Part shown: positions 9,066 to 64,000 of the stretch, piece by piece
How positions within the stretch are numbered: position 1 is the stretch's first letter
Layout: every line of letters begins with the position of its first letter
From: Lachnospiraceae bacterium
GTDB taxonomy: Bacteria > Bacillota > Clostridia > Lachnospirales > Lachnospiraceae
NCBI GenBank assembly: GCA_024694055.1
Contig: JAILKC010000071.1
Span: 3,789-67,788, forward strand
Length of the DNA: 64,000 nt
Direction: 5' to 3'
The notes under the pieces: generated by a model
Told to the model about the DNA's origin: nothing
What the model saw: the letters and a program-made list of their open reading frames with translations, nothing else
The model's database searches: none
Translations under genes and position numbers: made by a program

Positions 9066-9142
9066 AATTGTGCTAGATTTATTGCAACAACTGTTGCGGA
9101 TCGCATTAAAACAGGTACTGATACCTGTAGGGGGTGTAAAAG

Positions 9143-9574
9143 ATGTGGATATCTACTAAAGGAAAAAATGCCATAAAAGTAATGATAGATTTGGGGCAGT
9201 ATTCGACAGGAGAGCCGGTTAAAGTCAAGGACATTGCCAAGAGACAGGATATTTCGGATAAGTATCTTGAACAGATCATATCTTTGCTCAACAAAGCGGG
9301 ACTTGTCAAAAGTATAAGAGGTGCAAGAGGCGGCTATACCCTGAATATGCCTACTGAGAAGTATACGGCAGGGATGATACTCGAGGCGGTCGAAGGCGAT
9401 ATGTCGGTGATCGATGATCAGGGAGAGAGAACATCTGAGAATATTACGGATACGGTCTGTATGAGGCTGTGGGATAAGCTTGATGAGTCGGTTCGGGCAG
9501 TGCTTGATAACGTGACACTGGCAGATATGCTTGAGTGGCAGGAAGCACTTTTGGTGGATCAATATATGATATAA
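9143..9574 (+). CDS. Rrf2 family transcriptional regulator (CymR/IscR-like, lacking the Fe-S Cys triad)
   Basis: ISTKG..A, IS.KYLEQI...L.KAGLV.S.RG..GGY and IL..VEG motifs. Only one Cys. Confidence 0.92.
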   Translation: MWISTKGKNAIKVMIDLGQYSTGEPVKVKDIAKRQDISDKYLEQIISLLNKAGLVKSIRGARGGYTLNMPTEKYTAGMILEAVEGDMSVIDDQGERTSENITDTVCMRLWDKLDESVRAVLDNVTLADMLEWQEALLVDQYMI

Positions 9575-9595
9575 GGATCATGTGTGAATAATAAG

Positions 9596-9640
9596 CAGAA
9601 GATGTTGCGATCAGAGTCTGACCGCAACATCTTTTGTGTT
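9596..9640 (+). terminator. Rho-independent terminator closing the nitrogenase-like/sulfur block
   Basis: CAGAAGATGTTGCGATCAG-AGT-CTGACCGCAACATCTTTTG is a 19-bp stem (one G-U, one mismatch) ending in a T-rich run. Confidence 0.75.
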
Positions 9641-9668
9641 TGCAACAGTTTATGGATTATCTTATACT
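9640..9668 (+). promoter_or_regulatory. Putative SigA promoter for mutS2
   Basis: TTGCAA (9640-9645), 17 nt, TATACT (9663-9668). Confidence 0.55.
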
Positions 9669-9716
9669 ATAGACTAGCGATTAAGATTAATGAATCGATT
9701 GGTAATTTGCAATATT

Positions 9717-15475: not shown

Positions 15476-15525
15476 TGATGATTAGGAGTATACAGGCATA
15501 GTAGTAGCAGATAACGGTGGTGATC

Positions 15526-17013: not shown

Positions 17014-17038
17014 TTTACATAACTATACGGAGGATATT

Positions 17039-48082: not shown

Positions 48083-50470
48083 ATGAGTAGTAAAGAGGAC
48101 AGATTTGAATATAATATTCCTCATGCAATGGCGGCATGCGTTATCGCAGCCATACTGTATATCGCGTTCCTTACAATGTGCGGGATAGTTCCTTTTGGGG
48201 ATAATTCCTGGATCATAAAAGGAATGGAGAGGCAGTATGCGGATTATTTTACGTTCTTTAAGACCGTAATAGCCGGACAGAATGATTTTTTCTATTCATT
48301 TGATGGAACACTTGGCAGGAGTATGGTAGGGTTTTGCACATATTATCTGACCAGCCCGTTTTTGTTTATAACTCTTCTGTTTCCGCCCGAAGCTTTACCG
48401 ATGGCAGTGTCACTCATTGCAGGACTTAAGCTTGCTTTATGTGCGTTTACATTTGATATGATGCTGCAGAGATTATGCGGCAGGAGTACGTATCTGTGTT
48501 CCGTGACCTACGCCGTCTGCGGATACATGATCTATAATGTTCCGAATCTCATGTGGTTGGATGTGCTTATTCTTTTTCCATTAGCGGTCATTGCTTTGGA
48601 AGCCCTTATAAAAGACGGCAAACTCATGGGTTATACGATATGCACCGCCCTCATCATATATCTTAACTACTTTATGGGATATATGGTGCTTGCATTTTTG
48701 TTTTTATGGACGATCGTAAGAGTGTTGATCGAGGTAAACGGCAACAGGCAGGAGATCATAATGCGATGGGGTGTTGCCACAACAGCCGGAATTGGAATAG
48801 ACGCATTTGTGTTATTACCGGCGATCCTGGAACTGAGGGATATTTCTCTGACCTATGACGTGACCTATTCACGCATGGATATATCTTTGCTTTATTCCGG
48901 TATTCCCGTGATGATATTTGCAATACTGTATTTCTTCAGTCGCAAGATACCCGCAAGAGAGAGATTCGTGATGTTTCTTTTGATGATCCTGCTCGGAGTA
49001 TCTTATACATGGAAAAATGCGGCGATCATGTGGCATTTTCTGTTTAAGTCTGCTGACGGATCGTTTCCGGAAGCCTTTGCGGGAGTGTTTGTCACTTTGG
49101 TATGTGCCTGTCGTTTTTTACAGGTATGCGATCTTTCACGATCAAAAAGGATCATTGCAATATTGTTCTGTCTGTTGACGACAGTTATTCAGTTTGGCGA
49201 TACACTTCGCAACGGAACAAATGTATACAAGGCGGATGCAGCAGACGTTAAGACCGCATCAGAGTATGCCAAAGAATATGATATGGCTGCTGATGCCATA
49301 GAATATATCAAGAAAAACGATGTCAATTTCTGGCGCATGGACAGTCGGGCACCGGCCAGAAAGAATGACGGAATGGCACATGATTATAGAAGCCTTACGT
49401 ATTCGGGGACTTCAGAACTTGTATATTCAAGGGATTTTCTGTACAGATTGGGATATGATACCGGAAGAAACTATGTGGACTACGGATGTGACAATACTGA
49501 GACCGCGGACTCCATTTTGGGAATAAGATATGTAATGGCAGATGCGACGCAGGCCCCCTCGATGCACAGAGAATATAAGCTTGCTTACGACGGAGACACG
49601 AAGGTGTATGTCAATCCGTATTCGTTGCCGGTTGCCTTGGGTGTATACAGAGAGATGAGCGGTGAGTCGTCGGATCCTTTTTCAATGCAGGAAGATATAT
49701 ATGACAGGCTTACAGGCGAACCGGCAGACATATTTGTCTATGCGGATTCAGAGTATATCGAATCCGATAACAGCAGACCCGTCAGGGAATATGAGGTAAA
49801 AGCGGCGGCAGACGGAGAGATGTATATGTACATATCCGATCTTATGGATGATGATGCCGGCCTTGAAATATATCTTAACAATGAATTCGTATGTTATTAT
49901 GGTGAGGAAATATCCAAGAAAGTGATCAACCTCGGATACTATAAAAAGGGTGAAAACTTATTGGTACATCTGATCGCTTCGGATTCAAGTGAATTCGGCA
50001 ATGTGATATTTGCAACGGAAGATACGAAGGCTTTGGAGGAAGCATATAAAAAGACCATATCAAGACATGGTCTTGTGAGACAGATAAAGCCATCAAGTTT
50101 ATATATCACTTTGGACAGTGCATATACCGTAGGAGATGATATAAGCGGTGAAGTAGGGGTGTTTACCACGATTCCGTATCAGAAGGGGTGGAAAGCCAAA
50201 GTTGCGGGGGTAAAGGTAGAGCCGATAGAAGTATATGATGCGCTTGTATATATACCTGTTACGGAAGCCCTTCAACAGGCAGAGCTTATGCCTGATGAGA
50301 ATATCAGGATCGAGCTGTATTTTGTGCCTGACGGCTTTTATTTCGGAATACTTGTAAGTCTTGTATCGGTGTTTATTATTGTATTGATGGCAATCATAAA
50401 AAACAGCGAAGCAAGCTTTTTTGAAGATGATTATGAGGAAGAGCAAGAGGAGGAGTTAAATGAAAAATAA
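48083..50470 (+). CDS. YfhO family GT-C membrane protein
   Basis: PFGD....QY, YYLTSPF, N.MWLD, D..LG.RY, VNPY.LP and TIPY.KGW motifs, plus a C-terminal TM. Confidence 0.82.
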   Translation: MSSKEDRFEYNIPHAMAACVIAAILYIAFLTMCGIVPFGDNSWIIKGMERQYADYFTFFKTVIAGQNDFFYSFDGTLGRSMVGFCTYYLTSPFLFITLLFPPEALPMAVSLIAGLKLALCAFTFDMMLQRLCGRSTYLCSVTYAVCGYMIYNVPNLMWLDVLILFPLAVIALEALIKDGKLMGYTICTALIIYLNYFMGYMVLAFLFLWTIVRVLIEVNGNRQEIIMRWGVATTAGIGIDAFVLLPAILELRDISLTYDVTYSRMDISLLYSGIPVMIFAILYFFSRKIPARERFVMFLLMILLGVSYTWKNAAIMWHFLFKSADGSFPEAFAGVFVTLVCACRFLQVCDLSRSKRIIAILFCLLTTVIQFGDTLRNGTNVYKADAADVKTASEYAKEYDMAADAIEYIKKNDVNFWRMDSRAPARKNDGMAHDYRSLTYSGTSELVYSRDFLYRLGYDTGRNYVDYGCDNTETADSILGIRYVMADATQAPSMHREYKLAYDGDTKVYVNPYSLPVALGVYREMSGESSDPFSMQEDIYDRLTGEPADIFVYADSEYIESDNSRPVREYEVKAAADGEMYMYISDLMDDDAGLEIYLNNEFVCYYGEEISKKVINLGYYKKGENLLVHLIASDSSEFGNVIFATEDTKALEEAYKKTISRHGLVRQIKPSSLYITLDSAYTVGDDISGEVGVFTTIPYQKGWKAKVAGVKVEPIEVYDALVYIPVTEALQQAELMPDENIRIELYFVPDGFYFGILVSLVSVFIIVLMAIIKNSEASFFEDDYEEEQEEELNEK

Positions 50471-51461
50471 CCTGCACGGATCGGTAATCATTACATACAG
50501 ATGTAATGCGCACTGCAATATGTGTGATTGCTTTAGGGATCCCACCAGACCGGAAGAAGAGATAGATCTTGAGACTTTAAAGAAGCTTCCGGACATGGCA
50601 TTTACCAATATAACGGGAGGAGAGCCTTTTATCCGTACGGATATAGGAGATATTGTGGAGTTGATATATAAGAAAACTCCCAGAATAGTGATATCTACAA
50701 ATGGATACTTTACGGACAGGATTATAGAGTTATGTAAACAATATCCACAGATAGGCATCCGTATATCCATTGAGGGACTGGAGGAGACCAACAATGCCAT
50801 AAGAGGTCTTCCGGATGGATTTAACAGAGGCTATGGCACTTTGCAGAAGCTCGTGGAGATGGGGCATAAGGATGTAGGGTTTGGAATGACGGTTCAGGAC
50901 ATGAACTGCAAGGATCTTGTACCGCTCTATCATATGGCCTGTGAACTTGATATGGAATTTGCAACGGCAAGCCTGCATAACAGCTTTTATTTTCGTAAAA
51001 CGGACAATAAGATAGATGATAAGTACAAGGTGGCCAAGGCTTTCGAGGAACTGGTCAATGAGCTTTTACAGAGCAAGAGCCCCAAAAAGTGGGGAAGAGC
51101 CTATTTCAACCACGGACTGATCAATTATATATATGATCAGCCGAGACTTCTTCCGTGTGAGATGGGCAGTAACGGATTCTTCCTTGATCCGTATGGACAT
51201 GTATTGCCGTGTAACGGTTCTACCGAAAAGATGTCCATGGGTAATCTCCACGACAATACGTGGGAAGAGATATGGAACGGAGAGCAGGCTGCCAGAGTCA
51301 GAGAACAGGTCAAGCACTGTGAGAAGAACTGCTGGATGATAGGTTCGGTAGCTCCCGCCATGAAGCAGAGGATATGGGTGCCCGGATGGTGGGTGATCAA
51401 GCATAAGCTCTTTATGGGAGGGCATTACAGCCTGGAAGAGAATAAGTTCATAAATCAGTAG
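50460..51461 (+). CDS. Radical SAM protein with SPASM/twitch domain
   Basis: TYRCNAHCNMC (CX3CX2C), TGGEP, STNG and the Cys-rich C-terminus PC...PC...C..NC. Confidence 0.92.
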   Translation: MKNNLHGSVIITYRCNAHCNMCDCFRDPTRPEEEIDLETLKKLPDMAFTNITGGEPFIRTDIGDIVELIYKKTPRIVISTNGYFTDRIIELCKQYPQIGIRISIEGLEETNNAIRGLPDGFNRGYGTLQKLVEMGHKDVGFGMTVQDMNCKDLVPLYHMACELDMEFATASLHNSFYFRKTDNKIDDKYKVAKAFEELVNELLQSKSPKKWGRAYFNHGLINYIYDQPRLLPCEMGSNGFFLDPYGHVLPCNGSTEKMSMGNLHDNTWEEIWNGEQAARVREQVKHCEKNCWMIGSVAPAMKQRIWVPGWWVIKHKLFMGGHYSLEENKFINQ

Positions 51462-51513: not shown

Positions 51514-52500
51514 ATGCTAAACGGCAAGACCATACTTGTGACAGGCGGAACGGGATCATTCGGCAAGTGTTTTACAAAATATGTGCTCACACATTATGAT
51601 CCCAAGAAGATCATTATATATTCGAGGGATGAATACAAGCAGTTTGTTATGCAGAACGATATGAAAGAATATGCGGACAAACTGAGATTCTTCATCGGCG
51701 ATGTAAGAGACAGGGACAGGCTCTCAAGAGCTCTGGTGGGTGTGGACTATATTGTACATGCAGCGGCTCTTAAGCAGGTTCCTGCCTGTGAATATAATCC
51801 CAACGAGGCGATCAAGACCAATATTCACGGTGCGATGAACGTGATAGATGCAGCGCTGGATTCAGGTTCTGTGCGTAAGGTTGTGGCTCTTTCCACGGAT
51901 AAGGCGGTTAATCCTGTCAATCTCTACGGTGGCACCAAGCTTGTATCTGATAAGCTCTTCATAGCAGCCAATGCTTACAGCGGAGTGAGTGATATCAATT
52001 TTTCGATAGTAAGATACGGTAATGTGGCAGGCAGCAGAGGCAGTGTCATACCGTTTTTCAGAAACATCATTGAAAACGGTGGAGACAAACTCCCGATCAC
52101 CGATTACCGTATGACGAGATTCTGGATCAGTCTTGAGCAGGGAGTGGAACTGGTTATCAAGGCTCTTTCAGAGGCAAGAGGCGGAGAGACTTTTATCAGC
52201 AAGATCCCGTCATTTAAGATCACGGATCTGGCTCAGGCCATGCTTCCCGGATGTGAGATGCCCGAGGTGGGCATCAGAGAAGGCGAGAAGCTTCACGAGA
52301 TCATGGTGACGGTAGAAGATTCGCTTACGACATATGAATACGATAAGCATTTTATAGTATATCCGCAGATGACATGGAATGACAGACAGTTGCCTATCCC
52401 GGGAGGAAAACCTGTAAAGCAGGGCTTCTCATACAGTTCGGGTAATAATACTGAGTGGCTTAGCGTTGATCAGATCAAGGAACTGCTTAAGACCGTATAG
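51514..52500 (+). CDS. pseB: UDP-N-acetylglucosamine 4,6-dehydratase (inverting)
   Basis: TGGTGSFG, SRDE.KQ, HAAALKQVP..EYNP, LSTDKA.NP.NLYG.TK, RYGNV.GSRGSV, MTRFWI and GIR.GEKLHE motifs. Confidence 0.95.
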   Translation: MLNGKTILVTGGTGSFGKCFTKYVLTHYDPKKIIIYSRDEYKQFVMQNDMKEYADKLRFFIGDVRDRDRLSRALVGVDYIVHAAALKQVPACEYNPNEAIKTNIHGAMNVIDAALDSGSVRKVVALSTDKAVNPVNLYGGTKLVSDKLFIAANAYSGVSDINFSIVRYGNVAGSRGSVIPFFRNIIENGGDKLPITDYRMTRFWISLEQGVELVIKALSEARGGETFISKIPSFKITDLAQAMLPGCEMPEVGIREGEKLHEIMVTVEDSLTTYEYDKHFIVYPQMTWNDRQLPIPGGKPVKQGFSYSSGNNTEWLSVDQIKELLKTV

Positions 52501-52511
52501 TAAGGACAGAT

Positions 52512-53825
52512 ATGAATACAGACAATGCCGGAAAGAGAATGTATGATCTGACTGCGAAGATATTTCCATATTTCAGAAGTCTTACGGGTAAGGGAGTGAG
52601 AGATACTCTTAAGGATATAGAAGAATACATAAAGAAACCTGCCGAAGGATATGATCCTCCGGCTTTTAGTGTATATGAAGTACCTACGGGGACGCAGGTA
52701 TTTGATTGGACAGTTCCCAATGAATGGGTGATAAGACAGGCATATATTGAGGATGAAAAAGGCGATCATATCATAGATATTAAGGATCACAATCTTCATG
52801 TGCTCGGATATTCCACACCTGTTGATGAATGGGTAAGCCTTGATGAACTTAAGAAACACGTATATGTTGAGGACAAACAGCCGGATGTGATACCTTATGT
52901 CACATCATACTATAAGGAGAGATACGGATTCTGTATGTCAAAGAATCAGTTGGACTCACTTCCGGAAGGTCGATATCACATGTATATCGACAGCGAACTT
53001 ATTGAAGGCAGTCTGACTTATGCGGATGTGGTGATAAAGGGTGAGACAGACAGAGAGATTCTTTTTTCCACATACTTCTGTCATCCGTCAATGGCCAATA
53101 ATGAATGTTCGGGATTGGCTTTATCCGCTGAACTCATCAGATACGTTGCTTCGATGACAGACAGAAGATATACATACAGGTTCGTATTTGTTCCTGAAAC
53201 CATAGGCTCTATCACATACTTAAGTCAGGATGATCATGTGAAGTATCTTAAGGAACACTTGGACGCCGGTTTTGTCTTATCCTGTGTGGGAGACGATAAG
53301 GATTATTCCATTGTACGTTCCAAATACGGTGATACTCTGGCAGACCGTGCTCTGATACAGATACTTAAGCACACAGATCATTATACGGATTATCCCTTCA
53401 GAGAGAGGGGATCAGATGAAAGACAGTATAATTCAGCGGGCGTTGATCTGCCTGTTGTATGTTTCTGTAGGTCAAAGTTCGGAGAATTTCCTGAGTATCA
53501 TACATCTGCAGACGATATGACATTTGTGTCACAACAGGGATATCAGGGAAGTTTTGATGCGATTACGGCTCTTATACGTATGCTTGAACACAACAGATAT
53601 TACCGCATGAAGGTGGCATGTGAGCCGCAGCTTGGCAAGAGAGGACTGTATCCCGATATCAGCAGGAAAGGATCATATGATGTCATCATGACACAGAGGG
53701 ATGTGATATCGTATGCCGACGGAAGGAACGATCTTATCGATCTGTGTGAGATAATCGGAGCACATCCGGACGAGATAACGGACATTATAGATAAGCTTGC
53801 GGCGGCTGATCTTATTGAGGCGTAG
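52512..53825 (+). CDS. DUF4910/DUF2172 zinc-aminopeptidase-like protein
   Basis: RSLTG.GVR.TL, FDW.VP.EW, PYVTSYY, CHPSMANNE.SG, PETIGS, GSDERQY and YHTS.D motifs, with a C-terminal HTH (EPQLGKRGLY). Confidence 0.9.
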   Translation: MNTDNAGKRMYDLTAKIFPYFRSLTGKGVRDTLKDIEEYIKKPAEGYDPPAFSVYEVPTGTQVFDWTVPNEWVIRQAYIEDEKGDHIIDIKDHNLHVLGYSTPVDEWVSLDELKKHVYVEDKQPDVIPYVTSYYKERYGFCMSKNQLDSLPEGRYHMYIDSELIEGSLTYADVVIKGETDREILFSTYFCHPSMANNECSGLALSAELIRYVASMTDRRYTYRFVFVPETIGSITYLSQDDHVKYLKEHLDAGFVLSCVGDDKDYSIVRSKYGDTLADRALIQILKHTDHYTDYPFRERGSDERQYNSAGVDLPVVCFCRSKFGEFPEYHTSADDMTFVSQQGYQGSFDAITALIRMLEHNRYYRMKVACEPQLGKRGLYPDISRKGSYDVIMTQRDVISYADGRNDLIDLCEIIGAHPDEITDIIDKLAAADLIEA

Positions 53826-53830
53826 GATAA

Positions 53831-54658
53831 TTGGAACTTAAATATACCGATCTATATAGAGGAATGGACATACATGAAGGCGATGTTATAGATGTAGCCT
53901 CCGACCTGGCAGGAATCATGCTCTACTGTAAAAAGAAGGGCCTTGAGTTTAATGCGGATCATCTTATTGACAGTCTCAAAGAGACCGTAGGTGAGAACGG
54001 AACCGTTCTGATACGTACATTTAACTGGGATTTTTGCAAAGGGATAAGTTTTGATATTAAAAGAAGCGTAAGCCGTGTGGGTGCACTGGGCAATGTGGCA
54101 CTTAGAAGAGATGATTTTGTAAGGACGGCACATCCTATATATTCATGGATGGTCTGGGGAAAGCTTACAGACGAACTTATAAGATATGACAATAAGTCGG
54201 CATTCGGCAAGGATACTCCGTTTGATCTGCTCTATATGTATAATGCCAAGCAGCTAAGTCTCGGTAATATCGATGGGGACTCATGTACCCAATTGCATCA
54301 CAGCGAAGCCGTGTGCGAAGTTCCCTACAGATTTGATAAGTCATATACAGGCGAATATACAGACAGAGACGGTCATACCGATGTACGCACGTACAGTATG
54401 CATGTAAGACCATATAATTTAAAGGTTGCTGTTCATACATTTCATGAAGGTGATGATTACAGACTTGTGGAATCACTTGGAATAGCCAGGAAGATGATGT
54501 ATGACGATACACTCAGGTGCCTTGTTTTTGACCTGCATGGAATGCAGGACTTTATAGTGGATGATATTAAGAATAATAATGGTAAGAGGATGGTCTTTAT
54601 AGACGGTAAACCCGGAATCATGCATCCTGAGATCGATTATTCGAAGATGGAATTCTAA
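53831..54658 (+). CDS. AAC(3)/YokD family N-acyltransferase
   Basis: G..GT...TFN, FD...S...G.L, R..HP..S and T.LH..E....PYR..K motifs. TTG start after AGGA. Confidence 0.82.
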   Translation: MELKYTDLYRGMDIHEGDVIDVASDLAGIMLYCKKKGLEFNADHLIDSLKETVGENGTVLIRTFNWDFCKGISFDIKRSVSRVGALGNVALRRDDFVRTAHPIYSWMVWGKLTDELIRYDNKSAFGKDTPFDLLYMYNAKQLSLGNIDGDSCTQLHHSEAVCEVPYRFDKSYTGEYTDRDGHTDVRTYSMHVRPYNLKVAVHTFHEGDDYRLVESLGIARKMMYDDTLRCLVFDLHGMQDFIVDDIKNNNGKRMVFIDGKPGIMHPEIDYSKMEF

Positions 54659-54668
54659 GGAGAATCAT

Positions 54669-56219
54669 ATGTATATCAATGTCTTGGAAATGCTTGAAGA
54701 CAATGTCAGGGATAATCCTGACAGAGTGGCACTGCGGGACGAAAATGAAAGCATTACATACAAAGAATTATATGAAAGGGCAAGGAGTATAGCAGGTTAT
54801 ATCCTCGCTCATACAGGGGTGGAGTCAGGACTTGCGGCAACGACACATCTGCCTAAACCGGTGGCGGTATGCATAGATCGAGATATCAGAAGTATCATCT
54901 TATTTTTTGGTATCGTATACAGTGGCAACTTCTATGTTCCGATTGATGTGAACATGCCAAAAGAGAGGATAGATACGATATTTGCAGATCTTAAGCCGAT
55001 GATGATCCTAAGCTCTGCGGGCCAGACGATAGAAGGGCTTGATGTAACTGATTATGAGAAGGCAGTCTGTTCTGACGCAGATGAGGATGTATTGTCCGTT
55101 ATCAGAACCAATCACATAGACACCAATCCTTTATATGCCATATATACATCCGGATCAACGGGTAAGCCCAAAGGAGTGCTCATCAGTCACAGATCGGTGA
55201 TAGATCTTGTAGAACAGTTTGCGATCACTTTTCCTTTTCCGGATAATCTTAATTTTGGCAATCAGGCGCCGTTTGATTTTGACGTATCGGTTAAGGATAT
55301 ATATGATGCGCTTTATAATCACGGAACGGTGACAGTCATTCCCAAGGCACTTTTCTCCATGCCGCTCAAGCTTATAGAGTATATTAATGAAAATGATATC
55401 AATACGATGATCTGGGCTGTATCAGCCATGAGAATCGTAGAGAATTTCAAGACTTTTTCACAGATACAGACTGACAGACCGAAGCTTATAATGTTCTCCG
55501 GCGAGATCATGCCTGTGAAGGTACTCAATTACTGGAAGGAGAATGTTCCCGGCGCAGTGTATGTCAATCTCTACGGACCGACTGAGATCACGTGTAACTG
55601 CAGCTACTATATCATAGACAGGGAATATGCTGTGGATGAGGCTCTTCCTATAGGAGTGCCTTTCAGAAACACACAGATACTCTTACTTGATCCGGAAAGC
55701 GGTACTCCCATTACAGAGAGCGGAAAAGAAGGGGAGATATGCGTAAGAGGAAGCAGCCTTGCGCTTGGCTATTACGGAGCACCTGATAAGACTGCGGAGA
55801 GTTTTGCAGCCAGTCCGCTTACCGATAAGTATCCTGAGAGAATATATCATACCGGCGACCTTGGTTACTATGGAGATGACGGACTTTTAAGATTTACATC
55901 CAGAAAAGACTATCAGATCAAGCACATGGGACACAGGATAGAGCTTGGTGAGATAGAAGTGGCAGTTTGTGCCATAGATTATATTGATGCAGCCGTATGT
56001 GTATTCGATAAAGTAAGGGAGAAGATAGTCCTTTTCTATCAGACGGGTGAAGGCGCTGATGTATTTGCCACGGATAAGGAACTTGAGAGAGATATAGTTA
56101 AGAAAATATCCCTAAAGCTTCAGAAGTTCATGTGGCCTAATGTATACAAAAGGTACGACAGATTACCGCTTAATAAGAACGGTAAAATAGACAGAGTGTA
56201 TTTGGCATCGAAGTTATAG
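54669..56219 (+). CDS. Stand-alone amino-acid adenylation domain protein (DltA/NRPS A-domain-like)
   Basis: YTSGSTGKPKG, FDFDVS, NLYGPTE, Y.TGDLG, R.D.QIK..G.RIELGEIE and N.NGKIDR motifs. Confidence 0.93.
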   Translation: MYINVLEMLEDNVRDNPDRVALRDENESITYKELYERARSIAGYILAHTGVESGLAATTHLPKPVAVCIDRDIRSIILFFGIVYSGNFYVPIDVNMPKERIDTIFADLKPMMILSSAGQTIEGLDVTDYEKAVCSDADEDVLSVIRTNHIDTNPLYAIYTSGSTGKPKGVLISHRSVIDLVEQFAITFPFPDNLNFGNQAPFDFDVSVKDIYDALYNHGTVTVIPKALFSMPLKLIEYINENDINTMIWAVSAMRIVENFKTFSQIQTDRPKLIMFSGEIMPVKVLNYWKENVPGAVYVNLYGPTEITCNCSYYIIDREYAVDEALPIGVPFRNTQILLLDPESGTPITESGKEGEICVRGSSLALGYYGAPDKTAESFAASPLTDKYPERIYHTGDLGYYGDDGLLRFTSRKDYQIKHMGHRIELGEIEVAVCAIDYIDAAVCVFDKVREKIVLFYQTGEGADVFATDKELERDIVKKISLKLQKFMWPNVYKRYDRLPLNKNGKIDRVYLASKL

Positions 56220-56239
56220 AATTTGGAGGTTTTATAGTT

Positions 56240-56467
56240 ATGGAAGAATTGATTAAGATACTTGAAGAAGTCAGACCGGATCTTGATTTTGCAAGCGAGA
56301 CATCCCTTATAGACGGCGGGATACTTGATTCATTTGACATCATCACGATCGTTGGTGAGTTTAATGATGCGTTCGATATAGAGATCAACGTTGCAGATCT
56401 TTTGCCTGAGAACTTTAACTCGGCGGCTGCCATGTGGGAACTGGTGCAGAAGCTTAAGAATGCATAG
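56240..56467 (+). CDS. Acyl/aminoacyl carrier protein
   Basis: 75 aa acidic protein with the phosphopantetheine site GILDSF and PENF.S. RBS GGAGG. Confidence 0.92.
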   Translation: MEELIKILEEVRPDLDFASETSLIDGGILDSFDIITIVGEFNDAFDIEINVADLLPENFNSAAAMWELVQKLKNA

Positions 56468-56476
56468 AGGATACCG

Positions 56477-57721
56477 ATGAACAGGACCGATACGGAAGTT
56501 CTTTTAAAAAACGGAGCGATAAAGACTCCGTGTTATATTCTTAATAAGGATGATCTTAATGCCCATGTGGACAGGGTATGCAGTATCGTATCCGACATAG
56601 CAGGAGACAGAGTAGGCCTCTGTTATGCGATGAAAGCCAATGCGCTTATCACGGATATCATGTCTGAGAAGACAGGCCATATTGAAGTATGTTCGCCGGG
56701 GGAACTTAAGATATGTAAAGGCCTTGCCATACCGGGTGAGAAGATTATTTTTTCCGGTGTCAATAAGACCGAAGAGAATATACATGATGCGATCGAATAC
56801 GGCGTGGATATAGTCACTCTTGAATCGATCAGACAGTATAATATTGTAAAAGATTATGTGGCAGGGGCAGGCAGATCAGTTAAAGTACTTCCGAGACTGT
56901 CCGGTGGAGCGCAGTTTGGCATGTCCGAAGAGGAAGTCAGATTCGTTATAGACGACAGTATTCATACTGACGGTATTGACGCTATAGGTATTCACTATTT
57001 CACCGGTACGCAGAAAAAGAAGATCGACAAAGATATAGAGGAACTGGAGTATCTGACTGAATTTATAAAGGGATTAAAGGAGGAATACGGTTTTTCTCCG
57101 AAACTTTTGGAATATGGTGCAGGTCTTGCGGTTCCGTATTTTGAGGGCGATGATCATGAACATGTATATGACAGTCTGACGGAGCTTGTTACATACATTG
57201 CAGGGCTAGATATAGACTATAAAGTCGGAATAGAGCTTGGAAGATATTTCGCATACAGCTGTATGACATATCTTACGACAATAGATGATATGAAGAGATG
57301 TGCCGATACCAATATCCTTATAGTTGATGGCGGCATACATCATGTCAATTACTATGGCCAGAATATGGCCATGAGGGTTCCGCTCATGGATCTGATCCAT
57401 ACGGAGTCAGACGATAAGGGATCCGAAATGTCGATCGGAGCAGTGGATTATTCGGATGAGAACTGGAAGGTGTGCGGATCATTGTGCACATTTGCAGATA
57501 TTCTGGTGCGTAAGGTGACACTTGATGAGCCGAAGATAGGAGATGCGTTAGTATTCCATAATGCAGGTGCGTATTCGATGACCGAATCGCCCGCACTTTT
57601 CTTAAGCCGCCCGATGCCAGGGATATACAGTTACGGCAAAAATGATGGGCTTAAAGTTATTCGTGAGACCACAGAGACTTATGGTATCAATAATCCGCTG
57701 TCGGATGACAGAAACATCTGA
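56477..57721 (+). CDS. Fold-type III PLP-dependent decarboxylase (LysA/BtrK/VinO-like)
   Basis: YAMKAN (PLP Lys), EVCSPGE, H.F.GTQ, ELGRY, DGG, GSLCT..D and AGAYS motifs. Confidence 0.9.
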   Translation: MNRTDTEVLLKNGAIKTPCYILNKDDLNAHVDRVCSIVSDIAGDRVGLCYAMKANALITDIMSEKTGHIEVCSPGELKICKGLAIPGEKIIFSGVNKTEENIHDAIEYGVDIVTLESIRQYNIVKDYVAGAGRSVKVLPRLSGGAQFGMSEEEVRFVIDDSIHTDGIDAIGIHYFTGTQKKKIDKDIEELEYLTEFIKGLKEEYGFSPKLLEYGAGLAVPYFEGDDHEHVYDSLTELVTYIAGLDIDYKVGIELGRYFAYSCMTYLTTIDDMKRCADTNILIVDGGIHHVNYYGQNMAMRVPLMDLIHTESDDKGSEMSIGAVDYSDENWKVCGSLCTFADILVRKVTLDEPKIGDALVFHNAGAYSMTESPALFLSRPMPGIYSYGKNDGLKVIRETTETYGINNPLSDDRNI

Positions 57722-57735
57722 GGGAGCAGCATATA

Positions 57736-58845
57736 ATGTTCAGTCGTAGATTTAAGATAGGCGACAAATTCATAGGGGACGGATGCCCGGCATATATCGT
57801 TGCAGAGATATCTGGCAATCATAACGGAGATTATGACAGAGCCGTAGAGATCATTCATGCGGCAGCCAAAGCGGGAGCAGATGCTGTCAAGCTGCAGACA
57901 TATACGGCCGATACGCTTACGATAGACAGTGACAAACCGTATTTTCGTACTTCCGACAACAATATGTGGGCAGGAAGAACACTTTATGATCTGTATAAGG
58001 AGGCATATACACCGTGGGAATGGCAGCCTAAGCTTAAGGAAGAAGCAAAAAAGCTTGGCCTTGAATGTTTTTCGTCTCCTTTTGATCCTACGTCGGTGGA
58101 TTTTTTGGAAGATATGGGAGTATCGGCATACAAGATCGCAAGTTACGAGATCAACGATATTCCTCTTATACGCAAAGTAGCGTCAAAGCGTAAACCGGTC
58201 ATATTTGCGACCGGTATAGCATACAGATCGGATATAGAGAGAGCACTTAAAGTCTGTAAGGAAGAGGGTAACGATCAGATCATCCTTCTTAAATGTGTGA
58301 GCTCATACCCCACACCTTACAGTCAGGTCAATCTGCAGGTGATGAAGACTCTGGCAGAGGAGCACGGCTGTCTTGTAGGACTATCCGATCATACAATAGG
58401 AAGTGTAGTGCCCGTCGGAAGTATATTCATGGGCGGTAAGATGATAGAGAAACACTTAACCCTTGATCGTAAAGGCGGTGGAGTGGATGATGCTTTTTCG
58501 ATGGAACCGGATGAATTTACCGCTATGGTAAGGGATGTTCGCATAGCGGAAGAGGCTGCCGGATCTGAAGTTTATGAGCTTACGGACAAGCAGATCGAGG
58601 AAAGAGAAGGCAGTCGCTCGCTTTTCGCGGTAGCTGATATTAAGGCAGGTGAAGTGATCTCAACTGATAATGTGAGATCCGTAAGACCCGGTGTGGGCAT
58701 GCATACCATGTATTATGATCTGATACTGGGAAAAAAGGCGTCAACGGATGTGGAGCGTGGTACACCGATAGCACCTGAGATGATAGAAGGAATAAGCAGG
58801 GATGATGCACCTTATACGGGACAGGATAACTGTCCTATAGATTGA
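57736..58845 (+). CDS. pseI: Pseudaminic acid synthase
   Basis: AEISGNHNG, KLQTYTADT.T, TPWEW, KIASYE, LKC.S.YP, GLSDHT and IEKH motifs, plus a C-terminal SAF domain. Confidence 0.94.
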   Translation: MFSRRFKIGDKFIGDGCPAYIVAEISGNHNGDYDRAVEIIHAAAKAGADAVKLQTYTADTLTIDSDKPYFRTSDNNMWAGRTLYDLYKEAYTPWEWQPKLKEEAKKLGLECFSSPFDPTSVDFLEDMGVSAYKIASYEINDIPLIRKVASKRKPVIFATGIAYRSDIERALKVCKEEGNDQIILLKCVSSYPTPYSQVNLQVMKTLAEEHGCLVGLSDHTIGSVVPVGSIFMGGKMIEKHLTLDRKGGGVDDAFSMEPDEFTAMVRDVRIAEEAAGSEVYELTDKQIEEREGSRSLFAVADIKAGEVISTDNVRSVRPGVGMHTMYYDLILGKKASTDVERGTPIAPEMIEGISRDDAPYTGQDNCPID

Positions 58846-58873
58846 TCTTGCCGGTGCGTTTTTAGAATACATA

Positions 58874-60010
58874 TTGAGAATGATTGGAATTAGAGTAGAT
58901 GCCAACAGTATAATTGCCACAGGTCACATCATGCGTTGTATCACTATAGCAAGGGCGATAGTGAGAAATGGCGGGTCTGTGACCTTTTTTATAGCTGACG
59001 AAGAATCAGCTCTTCTGTTGCGCAAAAATGCAGGTGAATTATCTGACACGAATGTCGTTATCCTTAACTCCGTATGGGATGATATGGAGAGCGAACTGCC
59101 CGTACTCATAGAGCAGATACAGCTTCGAGGAATCGATATGCTCTTAGTGGATTCCTATAAGGTGACATATGATTACTTTAAGGCAATAAGCCGTGTGTGC
59201 AGGACGGCATACATAGATGACCTGCATGAAGGGATCTTTCCTGTAGATATCCTTATCAACTACAGCGGTTATCACGACATGTTTGATTATACGTCCGATT
59301 ATGCCAATATGCGCGGGCATGGTGAGACGACTACCAGACTTTTGCTTGGCCTTATGTATGCACCATTAAGAGAACAGTTTGCACTGGATGTCGGATCACA
59401 TGGAACGGATGTTGGCGGGCATGGCATAAAAGACATTCTTCTTGCATGCGGCGGAGGTGACACCTTGGGAATGATACTTCCGATGATGGAAGTGATCGCT
59501 GACAGGGGACTTGTCGGCAGTGTTGCAGATGACAGCAGTGTCAGTAAGGATGAGGTCGAAGCATGTAAATCCGGCCTTATATGGCATGTGGTAGTCGGGG
59601 ATTATGTAGAGAATAAGGAAGAGATAAGAGCATTTGCTTCATTACATAAAGGCTTTGTGATACATGAATCCGTACAGGATATGGCATCTCTTATGCGATC
59701 ATGTGATCTGGCAGTGGTGGCGGCAGGGACCATGCTGACGGAATGTGCGGCGATAAGGCTTCCGGCGGTATTCTATCAGGTGGCGGACAATCAGAAATAC
59801 GGTGTACAATACTGGAGCGGACCGGATCGGATGATATATGCAGGTGATGCCATTATAGATAAAAGCGGAGTCATCGCTTCAGTCATAAGGGAAGTGACAT
59901 CACTTATGAATGATCAGAACAGACTGGTCAACATACAGGATAAGCTGGGATCCATTACGGACGGTCACGGAGCCGAAAAGATCGCAGAGGCATTGCTTGA
60001 CAGAAACTGA
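58874..60010 (+). CDS. pseG: UDP-2,4-diacylamido-2,4,6-trideoxy-beta-L-altropyranose hydrolase (PseG/SpsG-like)
   Basis: RVDA...IATGHIMRC, VDSY, IDDL, GG.D, AAG....E, ADNQ and DG.GA motifs. No fused GNAT domain. Confidence 0.88.
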   Translation: MRMIGIRVDANSIIATGHIMRCITIARAIVRNGGSVTFFIADEESALLLRKNAGELSDTNVVILNSVWDDMESELPVLIEQIQLRGIDMLLVDSYKVTYDYFKAISRVCRTAYIDDLHEGIFPVDILINYSGYHDMFDYTSDYANMRGHGETTTRLLLGLMYAPLREQFALDVGSHGTDVGGHGIKDILLACGGGDTLGMILPMMEVIADRGLVGSVADDSSVSKDEVEACKSGLIWHVVVGDYVENKEEIRAFASLHKGFVIHESVQDMASLMRSCDLAVVAAGTMLTECAAIRLPAVFYQVADNQKYGVQYWSGPDRMIYAGDAIIDKSGVIASVIREVTSLMNDQNRLVNIQDKLGSITDGHGAEKIAEALLDRN

Positions 60011-60054
60011 CTGATTCTTAATATGACGCAGAAGATAGATGGAAGATAAGAAAT

Positions 60055-61236
60055 ATGAGATTAGCAATAATAGGTGCTTCGGACGAAGCCTTACATACAA
60101 TTGAATGTGCGAAGGGGCTTGGAATAGAGACAGTAGCTTTGGACGGTAATCCCAAAGCTGCAGGGCTTGAGGCGGCAGATATACCGATAGCGGTTGACAT
60201 AACTGATGAGAGTGCTGTCATAGATGTGATAGGAAAACTTGGAACGGACTGGATTCAGACTGTTCCCATAGGCAGATATCTCACAACTACCGGTGCCGTA
60301 AATGATGCGCTTGGTTTGCCCGGCATATCCAAGGATATGGCGATACTATGTACGGATAAGTATGCTTTCCATAAGACATTATCTGCAAAAGGACTTAGAA
60401 ACTGCTGCTGTGGACTGGTAAAAAACGGCGTTATAGGAGAGATGGACAGTCAGTCATTTACATATCCTGTCATAATAAAGCCAAGATACGGATCGGGCAG
60501 CAGGGGTATAATGATAGCACATGATGAGGACGAACTACCCGCATTCCTTGAAGATATAAAGAACGTGGACGAGGATTATATTGTGGAAGAATGCCTGGAT
60601 GGAGAAGAGTATGGTGTAGATGCCGTGGTGTCAGATGGCAGGCTTCATATCGTACTGATCCGTTATAAGTTAAATACTCCTCTTCCCAATAGGCAGGCAG
60701 TGGCTTATATCAGTGTGGATCCTAAGGAAAAAGTGCATGGACAGATCACGGATTATTTAAGCAGAGTAGTAGCCGCCATGGGCCTTAATGAATGCCTCAT
60801 GCATGCAGATATACTTGATACCCCTAAAGGGATATTTGCCATAGAGCTTTCCGCAAGACCTTCAGGGCACAATCTTCATAATCTTTTTACACCGCTTGCG
60901 ACCGGTGTGGATATAGCAAAAGAGTATATGAAGTACAGAATGGGTGAGGATCATTCATTTGACCCTAAATATACAAAACCTCTGATGATCCATTTTTTTG
61001 ATATGGAAGGAAGGGTGAAGACAGTTCCTGACAGAGAGGCTATAAAAAAAGCAATTGAGGCTTACGGAGCAAGCCTCACGGACTGGAACTGCAATATACA
61101 TCCAGGGGATGAACTTGAATCGGTAACTACCGGGCATTCGCTTATGTATCGCGGATATTATATTGTTGAATACGGTGACAGGACAGATATACCGAAGATC
61201 ACCAGTGCTGTGCGTGCTTCGTTTTCCATAGATTGA
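60055..61236 (+). CDS. ATP-grasp domain protein
   Basis: DK, YPVIIKPR.GSGSRG, EE.L.G.EYGVD, HAD and IE...RP.G motifs. Confidence 0.9.
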   Translation: MRLAIIGASDEALHTIECAKGLGIETVALDGNPKAAGLEAADIPIAVDITDESAVIDVIGKLGTDWIQTVPIGRYLTTTGAVNDALGLPGISKDMAILCTDKYAFHKTLSAKGLRNCCCGLVKNGVIGEMDSQSFTYPVIIKPRYGSGSRGIMIAHDEDELPAFLEDIKNVDEDYIVEECLDGEEYGVDAVVSDGRLHIVLIRYKLNTPLPNRQAVAYISVDPKEKVHGQITDYLSRVVAAMGLNECLMHADILDTPKGIFAIELSARPSGHNLHNLFTPLATGVDIAKEYMKYRMGEDHSFDPKYTKPLMIHFFDMEGRVKTVPDREAIKKAIEAYGASLTDWNCNIHPGDELESVTTGHSLMYRGYYIVEYGDRTDIPKITSAVRASFSID

Positions 61237-61287
61237 CAGTAAATTTACGGTTTAGTGACAAAGTGCAGACATGATTGCAGGTAGAGT

Positions 61288-62319
61288 ATGAAACTCAGTA
61301 TAATTGTACCCGTCTATAATATGGCGGCAGACGACAAACTTACATATTGCCTTGATTCGCTTATAGCGCAGACGATTGATGATTATGAGATCATAGCCGT
61401 GGATGATTGCTCAACGGATGATTCGTATATGATCATGCAGGAATATGAGAAAAGATATCCTGATAAGTTTCGCGCCATCCACAGTGAGGTCAATCTCCAC
61501 CAGGGTGGAGCCAAGAATATCGGAATAAAGGCCGCAAAGGGTGACTGGATCGGATTTATAGATGCAGATGACTGGATCGTACCCGACTACTATGAGAGAA
61601 TGATAGGCAAAGCAGAGGAAACGGGCGCTGATATTGTGGGATGTGATTATACCATTGTGCATGGTCATACCTATGAGATCGGAGAGATTGATACCAATGG
61701 AAGAGCGGATCAGGTCGGGGTACTTGATCATGATAAAAAGAGAAGCCTTATTTTAGACAGCGGTTCTTTGTGTGTAAAGATTTTTAAGAGGAAGACCATC
61801 CTTGATAATGAACTATGGTTTCCGGAACATATCTTTTATGAGGATAATGCTCTTGGCAATTCATATATGCTCACCGGAACACATTTTGAATATATACAGG
61901 AACCCTTATACTACTATTATCAGCATGGAGATTCTACGGTACATTCTTTCTCTGTCAAGAGATGTGAAGACAGGATGGAAGCCGGAAGGCTTATGATAGC
62001 GGAAGCAAAAAGACTGGGATTTTATGAAGAGTTCAAGGACGAACTGGAATATAAGTTCACTCAGCTTTTCTATGTGAATACACTCTTTACATATATGCCC
62101 TGTGTTCGTCCGACCAAGGTGGGTTTTGTAAAAGCGATGACAGCTGAGTTGCTCTCATTTTTTCCGGACTTTAAGGAGAATGAATATTACAGAGAGCGCA
62201 CGCCTAAAGAAGAAAAGCGCCTGATCGATATGGCGTGTGACAGTGCGCTTAAGTTCTATGTGTACTATAAACTTTTATGGGCATACAGGAATATGAGAAA
62301 GAAGGTAAGCAGAAGATGA
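61288..62319 (+). CDS. Glycosyltransferase family 2
   Basis: SIIVPVYN, VDDCSTD, QGGA.N.G, FIDADD and YED motifs. Confidence 0.92.
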   Translation: MKLSIIVPVYNMAADDKLTYCLDSLIAQTIDDYEIIAVDDCSTDDSYMIMQEYEKRYPDKFRAIHSEVNLHQGGAKNIGIKAAKGDWIGFIDADDWIVPDYYERMIGKAEETGADIVGCDYTIVHGHTYEIGEIDTNGRADQVGVLDHDKKRSLILDSGSLCVKIFKRKTILDNELWFPEHIFYEDNALGNSYMLTGTHFEYIQEPLYYYYQHGDSTVHSFSVKRCEDRMEAGRLMIAEAKRLGFYEEFKDELEYKFTQLFYVNTLFTYMPCVRPTKVGFVKAMTAELLSFFPDFKENEYYRERTPKEEKRLIDMACDSALKFYVYYKLLWAYRNMRKKVSRR

Positions 62320-63011
62320 AAACACTTGCGATAATTACAGCGCGTGGCGGAAGCAAGCGTATACCAAGAAAAAATATCAAGGAATTTAACGGTAAGCCCA
62401 TAATGGCTTATTCGATTGAGGCGGCCGTAGGATCGGGAGTTTTTGACAGAGTCATGGTCTCAACTGAAGATGAGGAGATAGCTGACATTGCAAAGCGTTA
62501 CGGGGCGGAGGTTCCTTTTTACCGCAGTGAGCAGACAGCGGGCGACTATGCTACCACATCGGATGTGCTAAATGAAGTTATAGCTGAGTATGAAAAGCGT
62601 GGTGAACAATTCGATATTATTGCATGTATCTATCCGACTGCGCCTTTTATCACTGCGGGCAGGCTTAAGGAAGCCGTGGAAGCTTTGCAGAAAAGTGATG
62701 CGGACTCACTTATTCCGGTTGTGAGATTCTCTTTCCCGCCGCAGCGGGCCATGGAGATCCGGGATGGATATTTAGTGTTCAGGCAGCCGGAATACATAAA
62801 TACCAGAAGTCAGGATCTGACCCCGCATTATCATGATGTGGGTCAGTTCTATGTGTTCAGAACAGAGAGTTTTGTTAAGAATCAGCGTATAATGGCCGGT
62901 AAGATATTGCCTATGGAACTTCCTGAAACTGAAGTACAGGATATAGACAATCCTGTAGACTGGCAACTTGCAGAACTTAAGTATAAGCTTATGAGTGAAC
63001 AGAATGGCTAA
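62316..63011 (+). CDS. pseF: Pseudaminic acid cytidylyltransferase
   Basis: AII.ARGGSKRIP.KNIK, CIYPTAP, RSQDL...YHD.GQFY and QDID...DW motifs. Start at ATGA 62316, overlapping the previous stop. Confidence 0.94.
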   Translation: MKTLAIITARGGSKRIPRKNIKEFNGKPIMAYSIEAAVGSGVFDRVMVSTEDEEIADIAKRYGAEVPFYRSEQTAGDYATTSDVLNEVIAEYEKRGEQFDIIACIYPTAPFITAGRLKEAVEALQKSDADSLIPVVRFSFPPQRAMEIRDGYLVFRQPEYINTRSQDLTPHYHDVGQFYVFRTESFVKNQRIMAGKILPMELPETEVQDIDNPVDWQLAELKYKLMSEQNG

Positions 63012-64000
63012 AAAAGACAGGATCTATGTATGTCACACCTTTTATCATGTGTACATATCGGTCATAAAAGAACTGAATCTGAGTAAAGATATGCGTGGAA
63101 ATGCATCTTTGGTCTTAAGTACGATGTCCAATGATTTCGGTAATATCGCGGACAGAATACTTGGTACGGATCTTTTTACGGATGTATATATGTTTGATGA
63201 AAAGGAAGATGTGGTTCTTCCGGAGGTGATGAAATATCACGAGGACAGAGGCAACCTGACCCTTAATCTTTTGCAACGCATCAAATATACCAAGGCTTTG
63301 GGCAGGGCGCAGGAAGAGTATGTCCCTGTGGATTTTAAGGAATATAAAGACATATATGTATTCTGCGATCTTGATCCGATAGGCTATTACTTAAATTATA
63401 AAAAGATAAGATATCATGCACTTGAAGATGGATTGGATACCGTTTTATATTGTGACAATGCAAGATTCAGCAATATCGGGCACTTTGAGATCAAGGCATT
63501 TATGGCTAAGATCGGGCTTATATTTATTGAAAACGGATATTCAAAGTATTGCATTGACATGGAAGTCAACAATGCAAAGGATCTTAAGTATCCGATGAGC
63601 TTTTATAAGGAAGTGCCGAGAAAGCAACTGACGGATAATGTTGCAGAAGAGGACAGACATTATCTGATAGATATATTCATGGAGAATCCTGATAAGCTTT
63701 TAAAGCAGGTGTCCCGGATCAAGGATGATAAGCGTAAGGTTCTTATTCTGTCGGATCCGGTGTGTGATCTCGTTACTCGTAAGAAGATAATGCGTGATAT
63801 AATAAATAGATACTGTGAAGATTCGACGGTGTTCATTAAGCCACACCCGAGGGATGTGCTTGACTATGATACCGATGATTTTTCGGACTGTATCATTCTT
63901 AAGGGCAGATTCCCGATGGAGATGATGAACTATTTCCCAGAACTGCATATGAATCTGGCCCTTTCAATATTTACGACGGTAGACAGTATCGAATTTGCCG
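63004..64000 (+). CDS. Sialyltransferase-like glycosyltransferase (CpsK/Lst, GT52-like), probable pseudaminyltransferase; truncated by the window end
   Basis: Not in the ORF track because it has no stop. My translation starts MAKKDRIYVCHTFYHVYIS and contains in-frame LEDG (63421) and IKPHPRD (63835), the D/E-D/E-G and HP motifs of bacterial sialyltransferases. Confidence 0.82.
   Translation, partial: MAKKDRIYVCHTFYHVYISVIKELNLSKDMRGNASLVLSTMSNDFGNIADRILGTDLFTDVYMFDEKEDVVLPEVMKYHEDRGNLTLNLLQRIKYTKALGRAQEEYVPVDFKEYKDIYVFCDLDPIGYYLNYKKIRYHALEDGLDTVLYCDNARFSNIGHFEIKAFMAKIGLIFIENGYSKYCIDMEVNNAKDLKYPMSFYKEVPRKQLTDNVAEEDRHYLIDIFMENPDKLLKQVSRIKDDKRKVLILSDPVCDLVTRKKIMRDIINRYCEDSTVFIKPHPRDVLDYDTDDFSDCIILKGRFPMEMMNYFPELHMNLALSIFTTVDSIEFA

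Follow-up and report, generated by a model that had tools for sequence, protein, structure and literature searches.

A pseudaminic acid operon of a Lachnospiraceae bacterium with an embedded carrier-protein cassette, possibly for N-acyl exchange

Introduction

What are an amino-acid adenylation enzyme, a carrier protein and a decarboxylase doing among the genes for a nonulosonic acid? This question is raised by a stretch of 64,000 nucleotides (the window) from a Lachnospiraceae bacterium (assembly GCA_024694055.1, contig JAILKC010000071.1, positions 3,789 to 67,788 of the forward strand), the end of which holds an operon for pseudaminic acid (Pse). On the basis of sequence comparisons, it is proposed that a cassette for carrier-protein-dependent N-acyl exchange is embedded in this operon, by which the sugar would be deacetylated and then re-acylated. 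This answer is given an even chance of being right.

Nonulosonic acids stand at the outer tip of surface glycans, and their N-acyl groups shape charge, antigenicity and recognition by phages and lectins. Of the enzymes that attach groups other than acetyl to them, next to nothing is known according to the literature (PMC5378307). The locus offers a compact and intact test case from a gut commensal lineage, in which loader, tailoring enzyme, exchanger pair and product type are all predicted.

The source assembly (G000) is fragmented, with 186 contigs and 84% completeness for a genome of 2.3 Mb. Genes were named with Pfam and NCBIfam profiles, and the curated cut-offs of NCBIfam were used to decide on equivalogs. 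The relatives of the window are Lachnospiraceae metagenome-assembled genomes. Loci, genomes and contigs are referred to by L, G and C numbers.

The operon and the proposed reactions

Open reading frame (ORF) calling gave twelve ORFs at the end of the window, all on the plus strand, with gaps of 5-51 nt and two overlaps:

51514..52500, plus strand: pseB, inverting UDP-N-acetylglucosamine (UDP-GlcNAc) 4,6-dehydratase (TIGR03589, 524 bits against a cut-off of 408; Polysacc_synt_2)
52512..53825, plus strand: DUF4910/DUF2172/HTH_47 single-zinc, M28-like protein of the Cj1295 / CA_C2195 family, proposed sugar de-N-acetylase (Pfam, 302 bits)
53831..54658, plus strand: AAC(3)-fold N-acyltransferase, proposed to be carrier-protein-dependent (Antibiotic_NAT PF02522, 78.7 bits)
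54669..56219, plus strand: stand-alone amino-acid adenylation enzyme with the code DVKIMSLCNK (TIGR01733, 310 bits against a cut-off of 317.4; DltA-like, 308 bits)
56240..56467, plus strand: carrier protein of 75 amino acids (PP-binding, 26.4 bits; DltC-like, 34 bits)
56477..57721, plus strand: fold-III pyridoxal phosphate (PLP) decarboxylase, BtrK-like, of the ornithine/diaminopimelate/arginine type (Pfam; best PDB matches BtrK)
57736..58845, plus strand: pseI, pseudaminic acid synthase (TIGR03586, 463 bits against a cut-off of 340)
58874..60010, plus strand: pseG, UDP-sugar hydrolase, without GNAT fusion (TIGR03590, 159 bits against a cut-off of 153.6)
60055..61236, plus strand: ATP-grasp enzyme, L-amino-acid-ligase-like, accessory (ATP-grasp_4)
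61288..62319, plus strand: GT2 glycosyltransferase (PF00535, 124 bits)
62277..63011, plus strand: pseF, CMP-pseudaminic acid synthetase (TIGR03584, 282 bits against a cut-off of 206)
62995..64000 and 80 nt beyond, plus strand: GT52 / polysialyltransferase-like protein, candidate pseudaminyltransferase (PF07922, PF07388)

The names given by Pfam and NCBIfam to the twelve genes agree with an earlier note on this DNA, made from the letters alone, which had listed them with operonic spacing. The operon is real, with its twelve genes confirmed, co-directional and tightly spaced. PseB, PseI, PseG and PseF each exceeded their curated cut-offs, as expected for the CMP-Pse pathway. The last ORF runs past the window end and has 361 amino acids in full (L009 11784-12869); the contig was read onward for about 2.5 kb, to its end.

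In the proposed sequence of reactions, the adenylation (A) domain would load aspartate or glutamate by the side-chain carboxyl onto the carrier protein. The decarboxylase would then strip the free alpha-carboxyl, leaving a beta-alanyl- or 4-aminobutyryl-S-carrier protein, as in VinN/L/O, FlvN/L/O and BtrI/K. The DUF4910 protein would remove an N-acetyl group of the sugar, most probably the N5 acetyl that comes from UDP-GlcNAc, as was proposed for Cj1295, and the AAC(3)-fold enzyme would move the carrier-bound acyl group onto the freed amine. A PseH-like GNAT encoded elsewhere would still acetylate N7, while the ATP-grasp ligase would catalyse an optional extra step, e.g. by attaching an amino acid to the terminal amine just gained. 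An N-(omega-aminoacyl) Pse of cationic or zwitterionic character would result, and the GT52-like transferase would pass it to a surface acceptor.

Neither a PseC nor a PseH gene was found by Pfam and NCBIfam in the window or in the 2.5 kb beyond. The earlier note had seen neither gene, which is correct for the window, whereas the genome does have PseC and probably a PseH. PseC is encoded on contig C154 (488 bits against a cut-off of 423.5), the only PseC of the assembly above the cut-off; its gene (L010 3436-4644, minus strand) has as neighbours a hybrid histidine kinase and a 654-residue protein with a Glft2_N domain. In the closest relatives pseC stands between pseB and the DUF4910 gene (L016) or directly before the DUF4910 gene (L046). 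Since pseC adjoins the DUF4910 gene there, it has moved in the genome of the window. The same relatives keep the gene order, and the arrangement is therefore not due to chance. The cassette is patchy in its distribution: of 300 other Lachnospiraceae genera that were sampled, 11 yielded it, and the only further genome from the same genus gave none.

The A domain, carrier protein and decarboxylase

The best PDB matches of the decarboxylase were the two BtrK entries, 2J66 and 7RU7, with an E value of 4e-30, ahead of all diaminopimelate decarboxylases. The enzyme retains the PLP lysine, the GxG glycine-rich loop and the ExGR and Cys motifs. By TIGR01048 it is not LysA (151 bits against a cut-off of 298), and the true LysA of the genome is encoded on contig C138 (376 bits). 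The Cys motif reads CTF in the cassette decarboxylases, CTP in BtrK and CES in the genome's own LysA. A fold-III PLP enzyme distinct from LysA is found here with a loader and a stand-alone carrier protein, which is the gene set of a carrier-protein-dependent decarboxylase. The use of meso-diaminopimelate, which would be tethered at one end, lose the carboxyl of the other and so yield a lysyl-carrier protein, was also considered; it was rated unlikely, as the CTx motif is shared with BtrK and the CES of the own LysA is not.

The best single-domain PDB match of the A domain was DltA (221 bits), and the VinN-type enzymes scored about 150 bits. A match of 344 bits with LgrA was rejected as a clue to glycine specificity, as two A domains, of 156 and 187 bits, add up to this score. 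The ten Stachelhaus positions were placed by means of the A4, A5 and A10 motifs and HMMER alignments to LgrA. The resulting code, DVKIMSLCNK, was identical in nine of nine intact A domains linked to a decarboxylase, whose overall identity goes down to 40%, and in none of the twelve amino-acid-type A domains of cassettes without decarboxylase. Ten of the latter read DNLFLCLDAK, and one locus, recovered twice (L014 and L023), reads DAPIMCLYAK; two decarboxylase-less cassettes carry non-amino-acid ligases. The visible motifs of a tenth decarboxylase-linked A domain, the frameshifted copy of L028, fit DVKIMSLCNK. The frameshift (L028 3435-4909) splits this domain into two overlapping ORFs, each of which retains its share of the motifs, and may be an assembly error or the mark of a pseudogene. 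The code provides a simple sequence marker for decarboxylase-type loaders in other genomes.

The carrier protein is the sole copy of its kind in the genome. Its Ser31, the phosphopantetheine serine of the motif GILDSFD, is invariant in 14 homologues.

It is well supported by these comparisons that A domain, carrier protein and decarboxylase would act as one butirosin/vicenistatin-style unit. The earlier note had assigned the three genes to an omega-aminoacyl unit, and this stands, with BtrK as the best solved relative, LysA encoded elsewhere and a code that tracks the decarboxylase. In the systems of BtrK, CtaF, FlvO and VinO, aspartate or glutamate is bound to the carrier by its side-chain carboxyl and undergoes decarboxylation in this bound state (PMC11350588, PMC11284099). 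Lys239 of the A domain fits the recognition of a distal carboxylate. From this residue and the published precedent, the formation of a carrier-bound beta-alanyl or 4-aminobutyryl group is well supported by comparison.

The trio is conserved in ten loci, together with three different partner machineries. Inside pse loci it accompanies the DUF4910 and AAC(3)-like genes (the window, L016, L018, L028, L046 and L058). In L068 it is found with NodB-type deacetylase, PglD-like, NeuB and NeuC-like genes, and in L044, L045 and L069 with MBOAT and DltD-like genes. The L068 locus (1235-10477) is of the legionaminic/neuraminic (Leg/Neu) nonulosonic acid type and holds in addition a protein of 340 amino acids of unknown kind and an ornithine-cyclodeaminase-like gene; no DUF4910 or AAC(3)-like gene is present in it. 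The Dlt-like operons (L044 9001-14526, L045 4737-10200 and L069 6228-12033) belong to Butyrivibrio sp. AE2005 and two other Clostridia. Their gene content suggests that a wall polymer is esterified there with a decarboxylated amino acid and not with D-alanine, so some Clostridia may carry a cationic wall group of another kind. It is conceivable, though we rate it somewhat short of an even chance, that in gut Clostridia the fixed trio supplies beta-alanyl or 4-aminobutyryl groups to at least three surface-glycan machineries: the AAC(3)-fold/DUF4910 exchanger on Pse, a version with NodB deacetylase on a different nonulosonic acid, and Dlt-like MBOAT systems acting on wall polymers. If so, the acylation of cell surfaces with omega-amino acids other than D-alanine would be new biochemistry.

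These operons also raise the possibility that the trio of the window does not serve Pse at all. It would then feed the O-acylation of a wall polymer by MBOAT and DltD-like proteins, as a variant of Dlt, and the DUF4910 and AAC(3)-like proteins would use another donor. The same trio with the same code does stand beside such genes in L044, L045 and L069, and the carrier protein of the window is 73% identical to that of L045. The 2.3-Mb genome has nine MBOAT paralogues, unusually many (C86, C164, C88, C165, C169, C50, C87, C103 and C52), and one lies in the window (21602-23065) with an SGNH partner. However, this MBOAT shares only 30% identity with the Dlt-like ones, and its gene lies 30 kb upstream. 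In six loci the trio is flanked by the AAC(3)-like gene on one side and by pseI or pseF on the other and has no MBOAT next to it, although one of the six (L070, an extension of L028) has an MBOAT-like gene about 8 kb further along the contig. Carrier protein and loader accompany the DUF4910 and AAC(3)-like pair in about two thirds of the cassette loci examined. Among NCBIfam models, the A domain and carrier protein of the window come nearest to DltA and DltC, but the scores stay below the cut-offs (295-308 bits against 476-560 for the DltA models; 34 against 68 for DltC). The code is different, a decarboxylase is present, no MBOAT or other DltB/DltD gene is adjacent, and the expected linkage is an amide and not an ester. 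A use of the trio outside Pse is therefore considered improbable.

The DUF4910 and AAC(3)-like pair

The DUF4910 protein aligned over its full length with CA_C2195 of Clostridium acetobutylicum (PDB 3K9T; E 3e-99). CA_C2195 binds one zinc through H189, D195 and H324 and is without the catalytic Asp and Glu of M28 peptidases (PMC4000134). H191 and H330 of the window protein align with H189 and H324, and in the alignment to 3K9T the catalytic Asp and Glu are replaced by S193 and P228. With one zinc site left and a Pfam M28 score of 17.3 bits (cut-off 21.3), the protein falls outside the M28 peptidases.

The AAC(3)-like protein scored 43.8 bits with the AAC_3 equivalog, for which the cut-off is 270, and its context is biosynthetic; judged from these, the gene is not a resistance gene. 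Its T153-H156-E159 motif aligns with the TxxHxxE of YokD and FrbF.

Both genes belong closely together. Over 27 loci besides the window, DUF4910 and AAC(3)-like genes adjoin in 24, and the longer AAC(3)-like homologues are all (26 of 26) fused to DUF4910/DUF2172/HTH_47. One such fusion, of 691 amino acids, was confirmed in G252 (L059 9521-11596) outside any glycan locus, with plsY, FKBP/trigger-factor-like, MaoC, Sir2, ssb and rpsR genes as neighbours.

The pair is constant and the acyl supplier varies. The supplier may be an A domain with a carrier protein, the same with an additional formyltransferase (L014, L025 and L029), or FkbH with an acyl carrier protein (ACP; L072 and L073). The decarboxylase-less flavour with the code DNLFLCLDAK is found among L013, L015, L017, L020-L022, L024, L025 and L029. 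In L025, L029 and L014 the formyltransferase, of 290 amino acids, is inserted between A domain and carrier protein, a position that suggests that the tethered amino acid is N-formylated. Most of the loci with the pair show no recognisable acyltransferase candidate near the carrier protein other than the pair itself; some also have an Acyl_transf_3 or hexapeptide-repeat gene.

As the pair is kept while the loader changes, a carrier-bound acyl donor is indicated, and the AAC(3)-fold enzyme most likely draws its acyl group from the carrier protein. The earlier note had cast this enzyme as the transferase, which is still the most economical reading. If true, an AAC(3)-fold enzyme using a carrier-protein acyl donor would be new biochemistry. 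A complex prediction for the AAC(3)-like protein and the carrier protein came out low, slightly under the mark set for it, and is evidence in neither direction.

The roles within the pair might also be swapped. In that case the DUF4910 protein would be a transacylase that moves the acyl group from carrier protein to sugar, and the AAC(3)-like enzyme would be an acetyl-CoA N-acetyltransferase that caps the new amine, to yield an N-acetyl-aminoacyl Pse, or substitutes for PseH. Nonulosonic acids with N-acetyl-aminoacyl substituents are known, and the AAC(3)-like protein has retained the His/Glu motif found in its acetyl-CoA-using relatives. An N-acetylglutamine derivative of a nonulosonic acid is mentioned in the work on Cj1295 (PMC3068675), and Das et al. 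(2014) preferred a non-peptidase reaction for CA_C2195, e.g. peptide or glutamine transacylation onto an amino sugar (PMC4000134). On the other hand, L014, L025 and L029 keep the AAC(3)-like gene although they add a formyltransferase, so a capper of the amine would be redundant there. The acyl group of the FkbH/ACP versions has no amine to cap, and the AAC(3) domain is still kept, in fused form. No transacylase precedent is known for the M28 fold. Taking both sides together, swapped roles are thought to be quite unlikely, if better placed than a Dlt-like use of the trio.

Exchange of an acyl group or replacement of PseH

The earlier note had seen the cassette as a stand-in for PseH. The AAC(3)-fold enzyme would put an omega-aminoacyl group, optionally capped by the ATP-grasp enzyme, onto the 4-amine made by PseC (N7 of Pse), and the DUF4910 protein would uncap it later. 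Several facts favour such a replacement: the window is without PseH, pseC directly precedes the DUF4910 and AAC(3)-like genes in L016, L018, L027, L028 and L046, and butirosin and vicenistatin use protect-and-deprotect logic.

PseH-like GNATs were searched for with a threshold of E <= 1e-12 in the genome of the window and 20 other cassette-bearing genomes, and were found in the former and in 12 of the 20. The cassette as a stand-in for PseH, as the note had it, is not supported. In the genome of the window the GNAT has 192 amino acids and is encoded on the 3.8-kb contig C8, with a GT2 gene on one side and a DUF6020 gene on the other. Its best NCBIfam model is PseH (77 bits, cut-off 93.1), followed at 37 bits by the next family. 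Relatives of this GNAT score 58-98 bits with the PseH model. One of them immediately follows pseI in L035, a locus of the same genome as L018, another immediately follows pseF in L021, and in G003, G250 and G078 they lie within 10-30 kb of the cassette. PseH is absent from the window but probably not from the organism.

Moreover, the amine that an aminotransferase makes is already served in two loci by a transferase of their own. In L015, where the pair is unfused, a sugar-type N-formyltransferase is encoded between pseI and pseG, and in L072, where it is fused, a PglD-like N-acetyltransferase lies within a complete pathway cluster. As the pair coexists with these enzymes, an exchange is favoured over a replacement. 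The NodB-type deacetylase that takes the place of DUF4910 in L068 supports an exchange as well. The presence of a hydrolase-like partner is also explained by it, because the N5 acetyl stems from UDP-GlcNAc and there is no way to change it other than to take it off.

The part of cap remover, or of the trimming peptidase that the earlier note had seen in it, does not suit the DUF4910 protein, because it accompanies the transferase with or without an ATP-grasp gene. This gene is present only in the window, L016 and L046, of about 30 loci, so that DUF4910, often fused to the transferase, is found in loci without a capping enzyme. As its homologue CA_C2195 is without peptidase catalytic residues, trimming is further disfavoured. 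In Campylobacter jejuni the loss of Cj1295 removed Pse5(di-O-methylglyceroyl)7Ac and left Pse5Ac7Ac, with no heavier capped sugar accumulating, and de-N-acetylation at C5 was proposed by the authors (PMC3068675). Across 16,130 genomes cj1295 correlates strongly with pse genes (PMC13130089). In view of these data, replacement of PseH is regarded as unlikely, though less so than swapped roles. The N7 position named in the earlier note finds no sequence feature that shows it.

Exchange, the preferred explanation, has its own difficulties. Neither the closest relative (the metagenome-assembled G001) nor three of eight high-quality cassette genomes yielded a PseH-like GNAT, which would suit a replacement, and the PseH-like GNATs fall under the curated PseH cut-off. 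The position of pseC in the five relatives fits a direct use of the PseC product too, and sequence does not decide between N5 and N7. Regarding the loader, Asp235 of the A domain normally binds the alpha-amine, so that side-chain loading is itself a conjecture, and the substrate may be either Asp or Glu. The third zinc ligand, Asp195, is replaced in the DUF4910 sub-family by Asn197, followed by an invariant Glu198. CA_C2195 is without the M28 general base, and its authors saw an amidase role as possible only with unusual residues (PMC4000134). Finally, the AAC(3)-like Cj1296/7 of C. jejuni was out of frame and the Cj1295-dependent glycan was made all the same (PMC3068675), so Cj1295 and Cj1296/7 need not cooperate there.

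Comparison with known systems

A close parallel in gene content is Cj1295 and Cj1296/7 of C. jejuni NCTC 11168, where the gene of a peptidase-like protein that matches in size and family stands beside an N-acetyltransferase gene among Pse genes; the kinship of Cj1295 to the DUF4910 protein of the window rests on Pfam, PIRSF and 3K9T. Cj1295 is required for Pse with a non-acetyl N-acyl group, and de-N-acetylation followed by re-acylation was proposed for it (PMC3068675). In contrast to the window, the acyl group of Campylobacter is a glycerate derivative (2,3-di-O-methylglyceroyl) on flagellin, in a model that involves neither an A domain nor a decarboxylase.

CA_C2195 has the same three domains, and its locus includes NeuB, an ATP-grasp aminoacyl ligase, aminosugar N-acetyltransferases and an ACP (PMC4000134). 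Unlike the window, this locus has a Maf-type flagellin transferase and is without A domain or decarboxylase.

With VinN/VinL/VinO and FlvN/L/O the window shares an A-domain enzyme that would load an acidic amino acid by the side chain onto a stand-alone carrier protein; in those systems the PLP decarboxylase acts on the tethered form only (PMC11284099, PMC11350588). Its A domain, however, is nearer to DltA and the nonribosomal peptide synthetases (221 bits) than to those of the vicenistatin and fluvirucin type (about 150 bits). Counterparts of VinM, VinK and VinJ are lacking in the window, and the proposed acceptor is a sugar amine and not a polyketide synthase loading domain. The likeness to butirosin (BtrI/BtrJ/BtrK) lies in BtrK, the nearest solved decarboxylase, and in an omega-aminoacyl group on an amino sugar, which for the window is a proposal. 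The earlier note had drawn on both pathways. VinN/L/O is the closer parallel, as the butirosin loader BtrJ is no A domain but an ATP-grasp enzyme. BtrH, the transferase, and BtrG, which deprotects, are of other folds without counterpart in the window; no BtrH-like transferase or gamma-glutamyl cyclotransferase (BtrG) Pfam domain was found from 50460 to the end of the contig.

The link of DUF4910, N-acetyltransferase, ACP and nonulosonic acid genes was published in 2010 and 2014. Full-text literature searches found no paper on the cassette with amino-acid loader and decarboxylase, on the invariant A-domain code or on the trio in Dlt-like operons. The new element appears to be the amino-acid and decarboxylase loader, within a cassette type that is widespread, known and biochemically unsolved.

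Accessory genes and the acceptor

The ATP-grasp protein matched 4DIM and the L-amino acid ligases 3VOT and 4WD3 in the PDB, and its atlas neighbours carry LAL_C2. Copies of the GT2 gene, 62-85% identical, occur in at least 13 related loci, and in relatives it adjoins the GT52-like gene.

The earlier note had assumed a Wzy-type acceptor polysaccharide. An EpsG-family polymerase-like gene and a priming transferase do occur upstream, but the conserved companions of the cassette are GT2, the GT52-like gene, an ABC exporter, GtrA, and YfhO or DUF6020. A YfhO-family membrane glycosyltransferase upstream (window 48083-50470) and the ABC exporter and GtrA downstream flank the pse block; the latter two directly follow the GT52-like gene (L009 12911-15117), after which the contig ends. 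This setting is more like the three-component systems of extracytoplasmic glycosylation than like a Wzy route.

One more gene directly precedes pseB:

50460..51461, plus strand: radical SAM/SPASM gene (Pfam)

A copy of it with 90% identity holds the same position in L016, and in L014 and the fusion locus L073, too, a radical SAM/SPASM gene adjoins DUF4910; this gene is possibly part of the tailoring set. As to the relatives, L016 has 1.8 kb without a long plus-strand ORF between the ATP-grasp and GT2 genes (15449-17232), and in L046 an insert of mobile appearance (AAA_15, HTH_3 and Bro-N) lies between GT2 and pseF.

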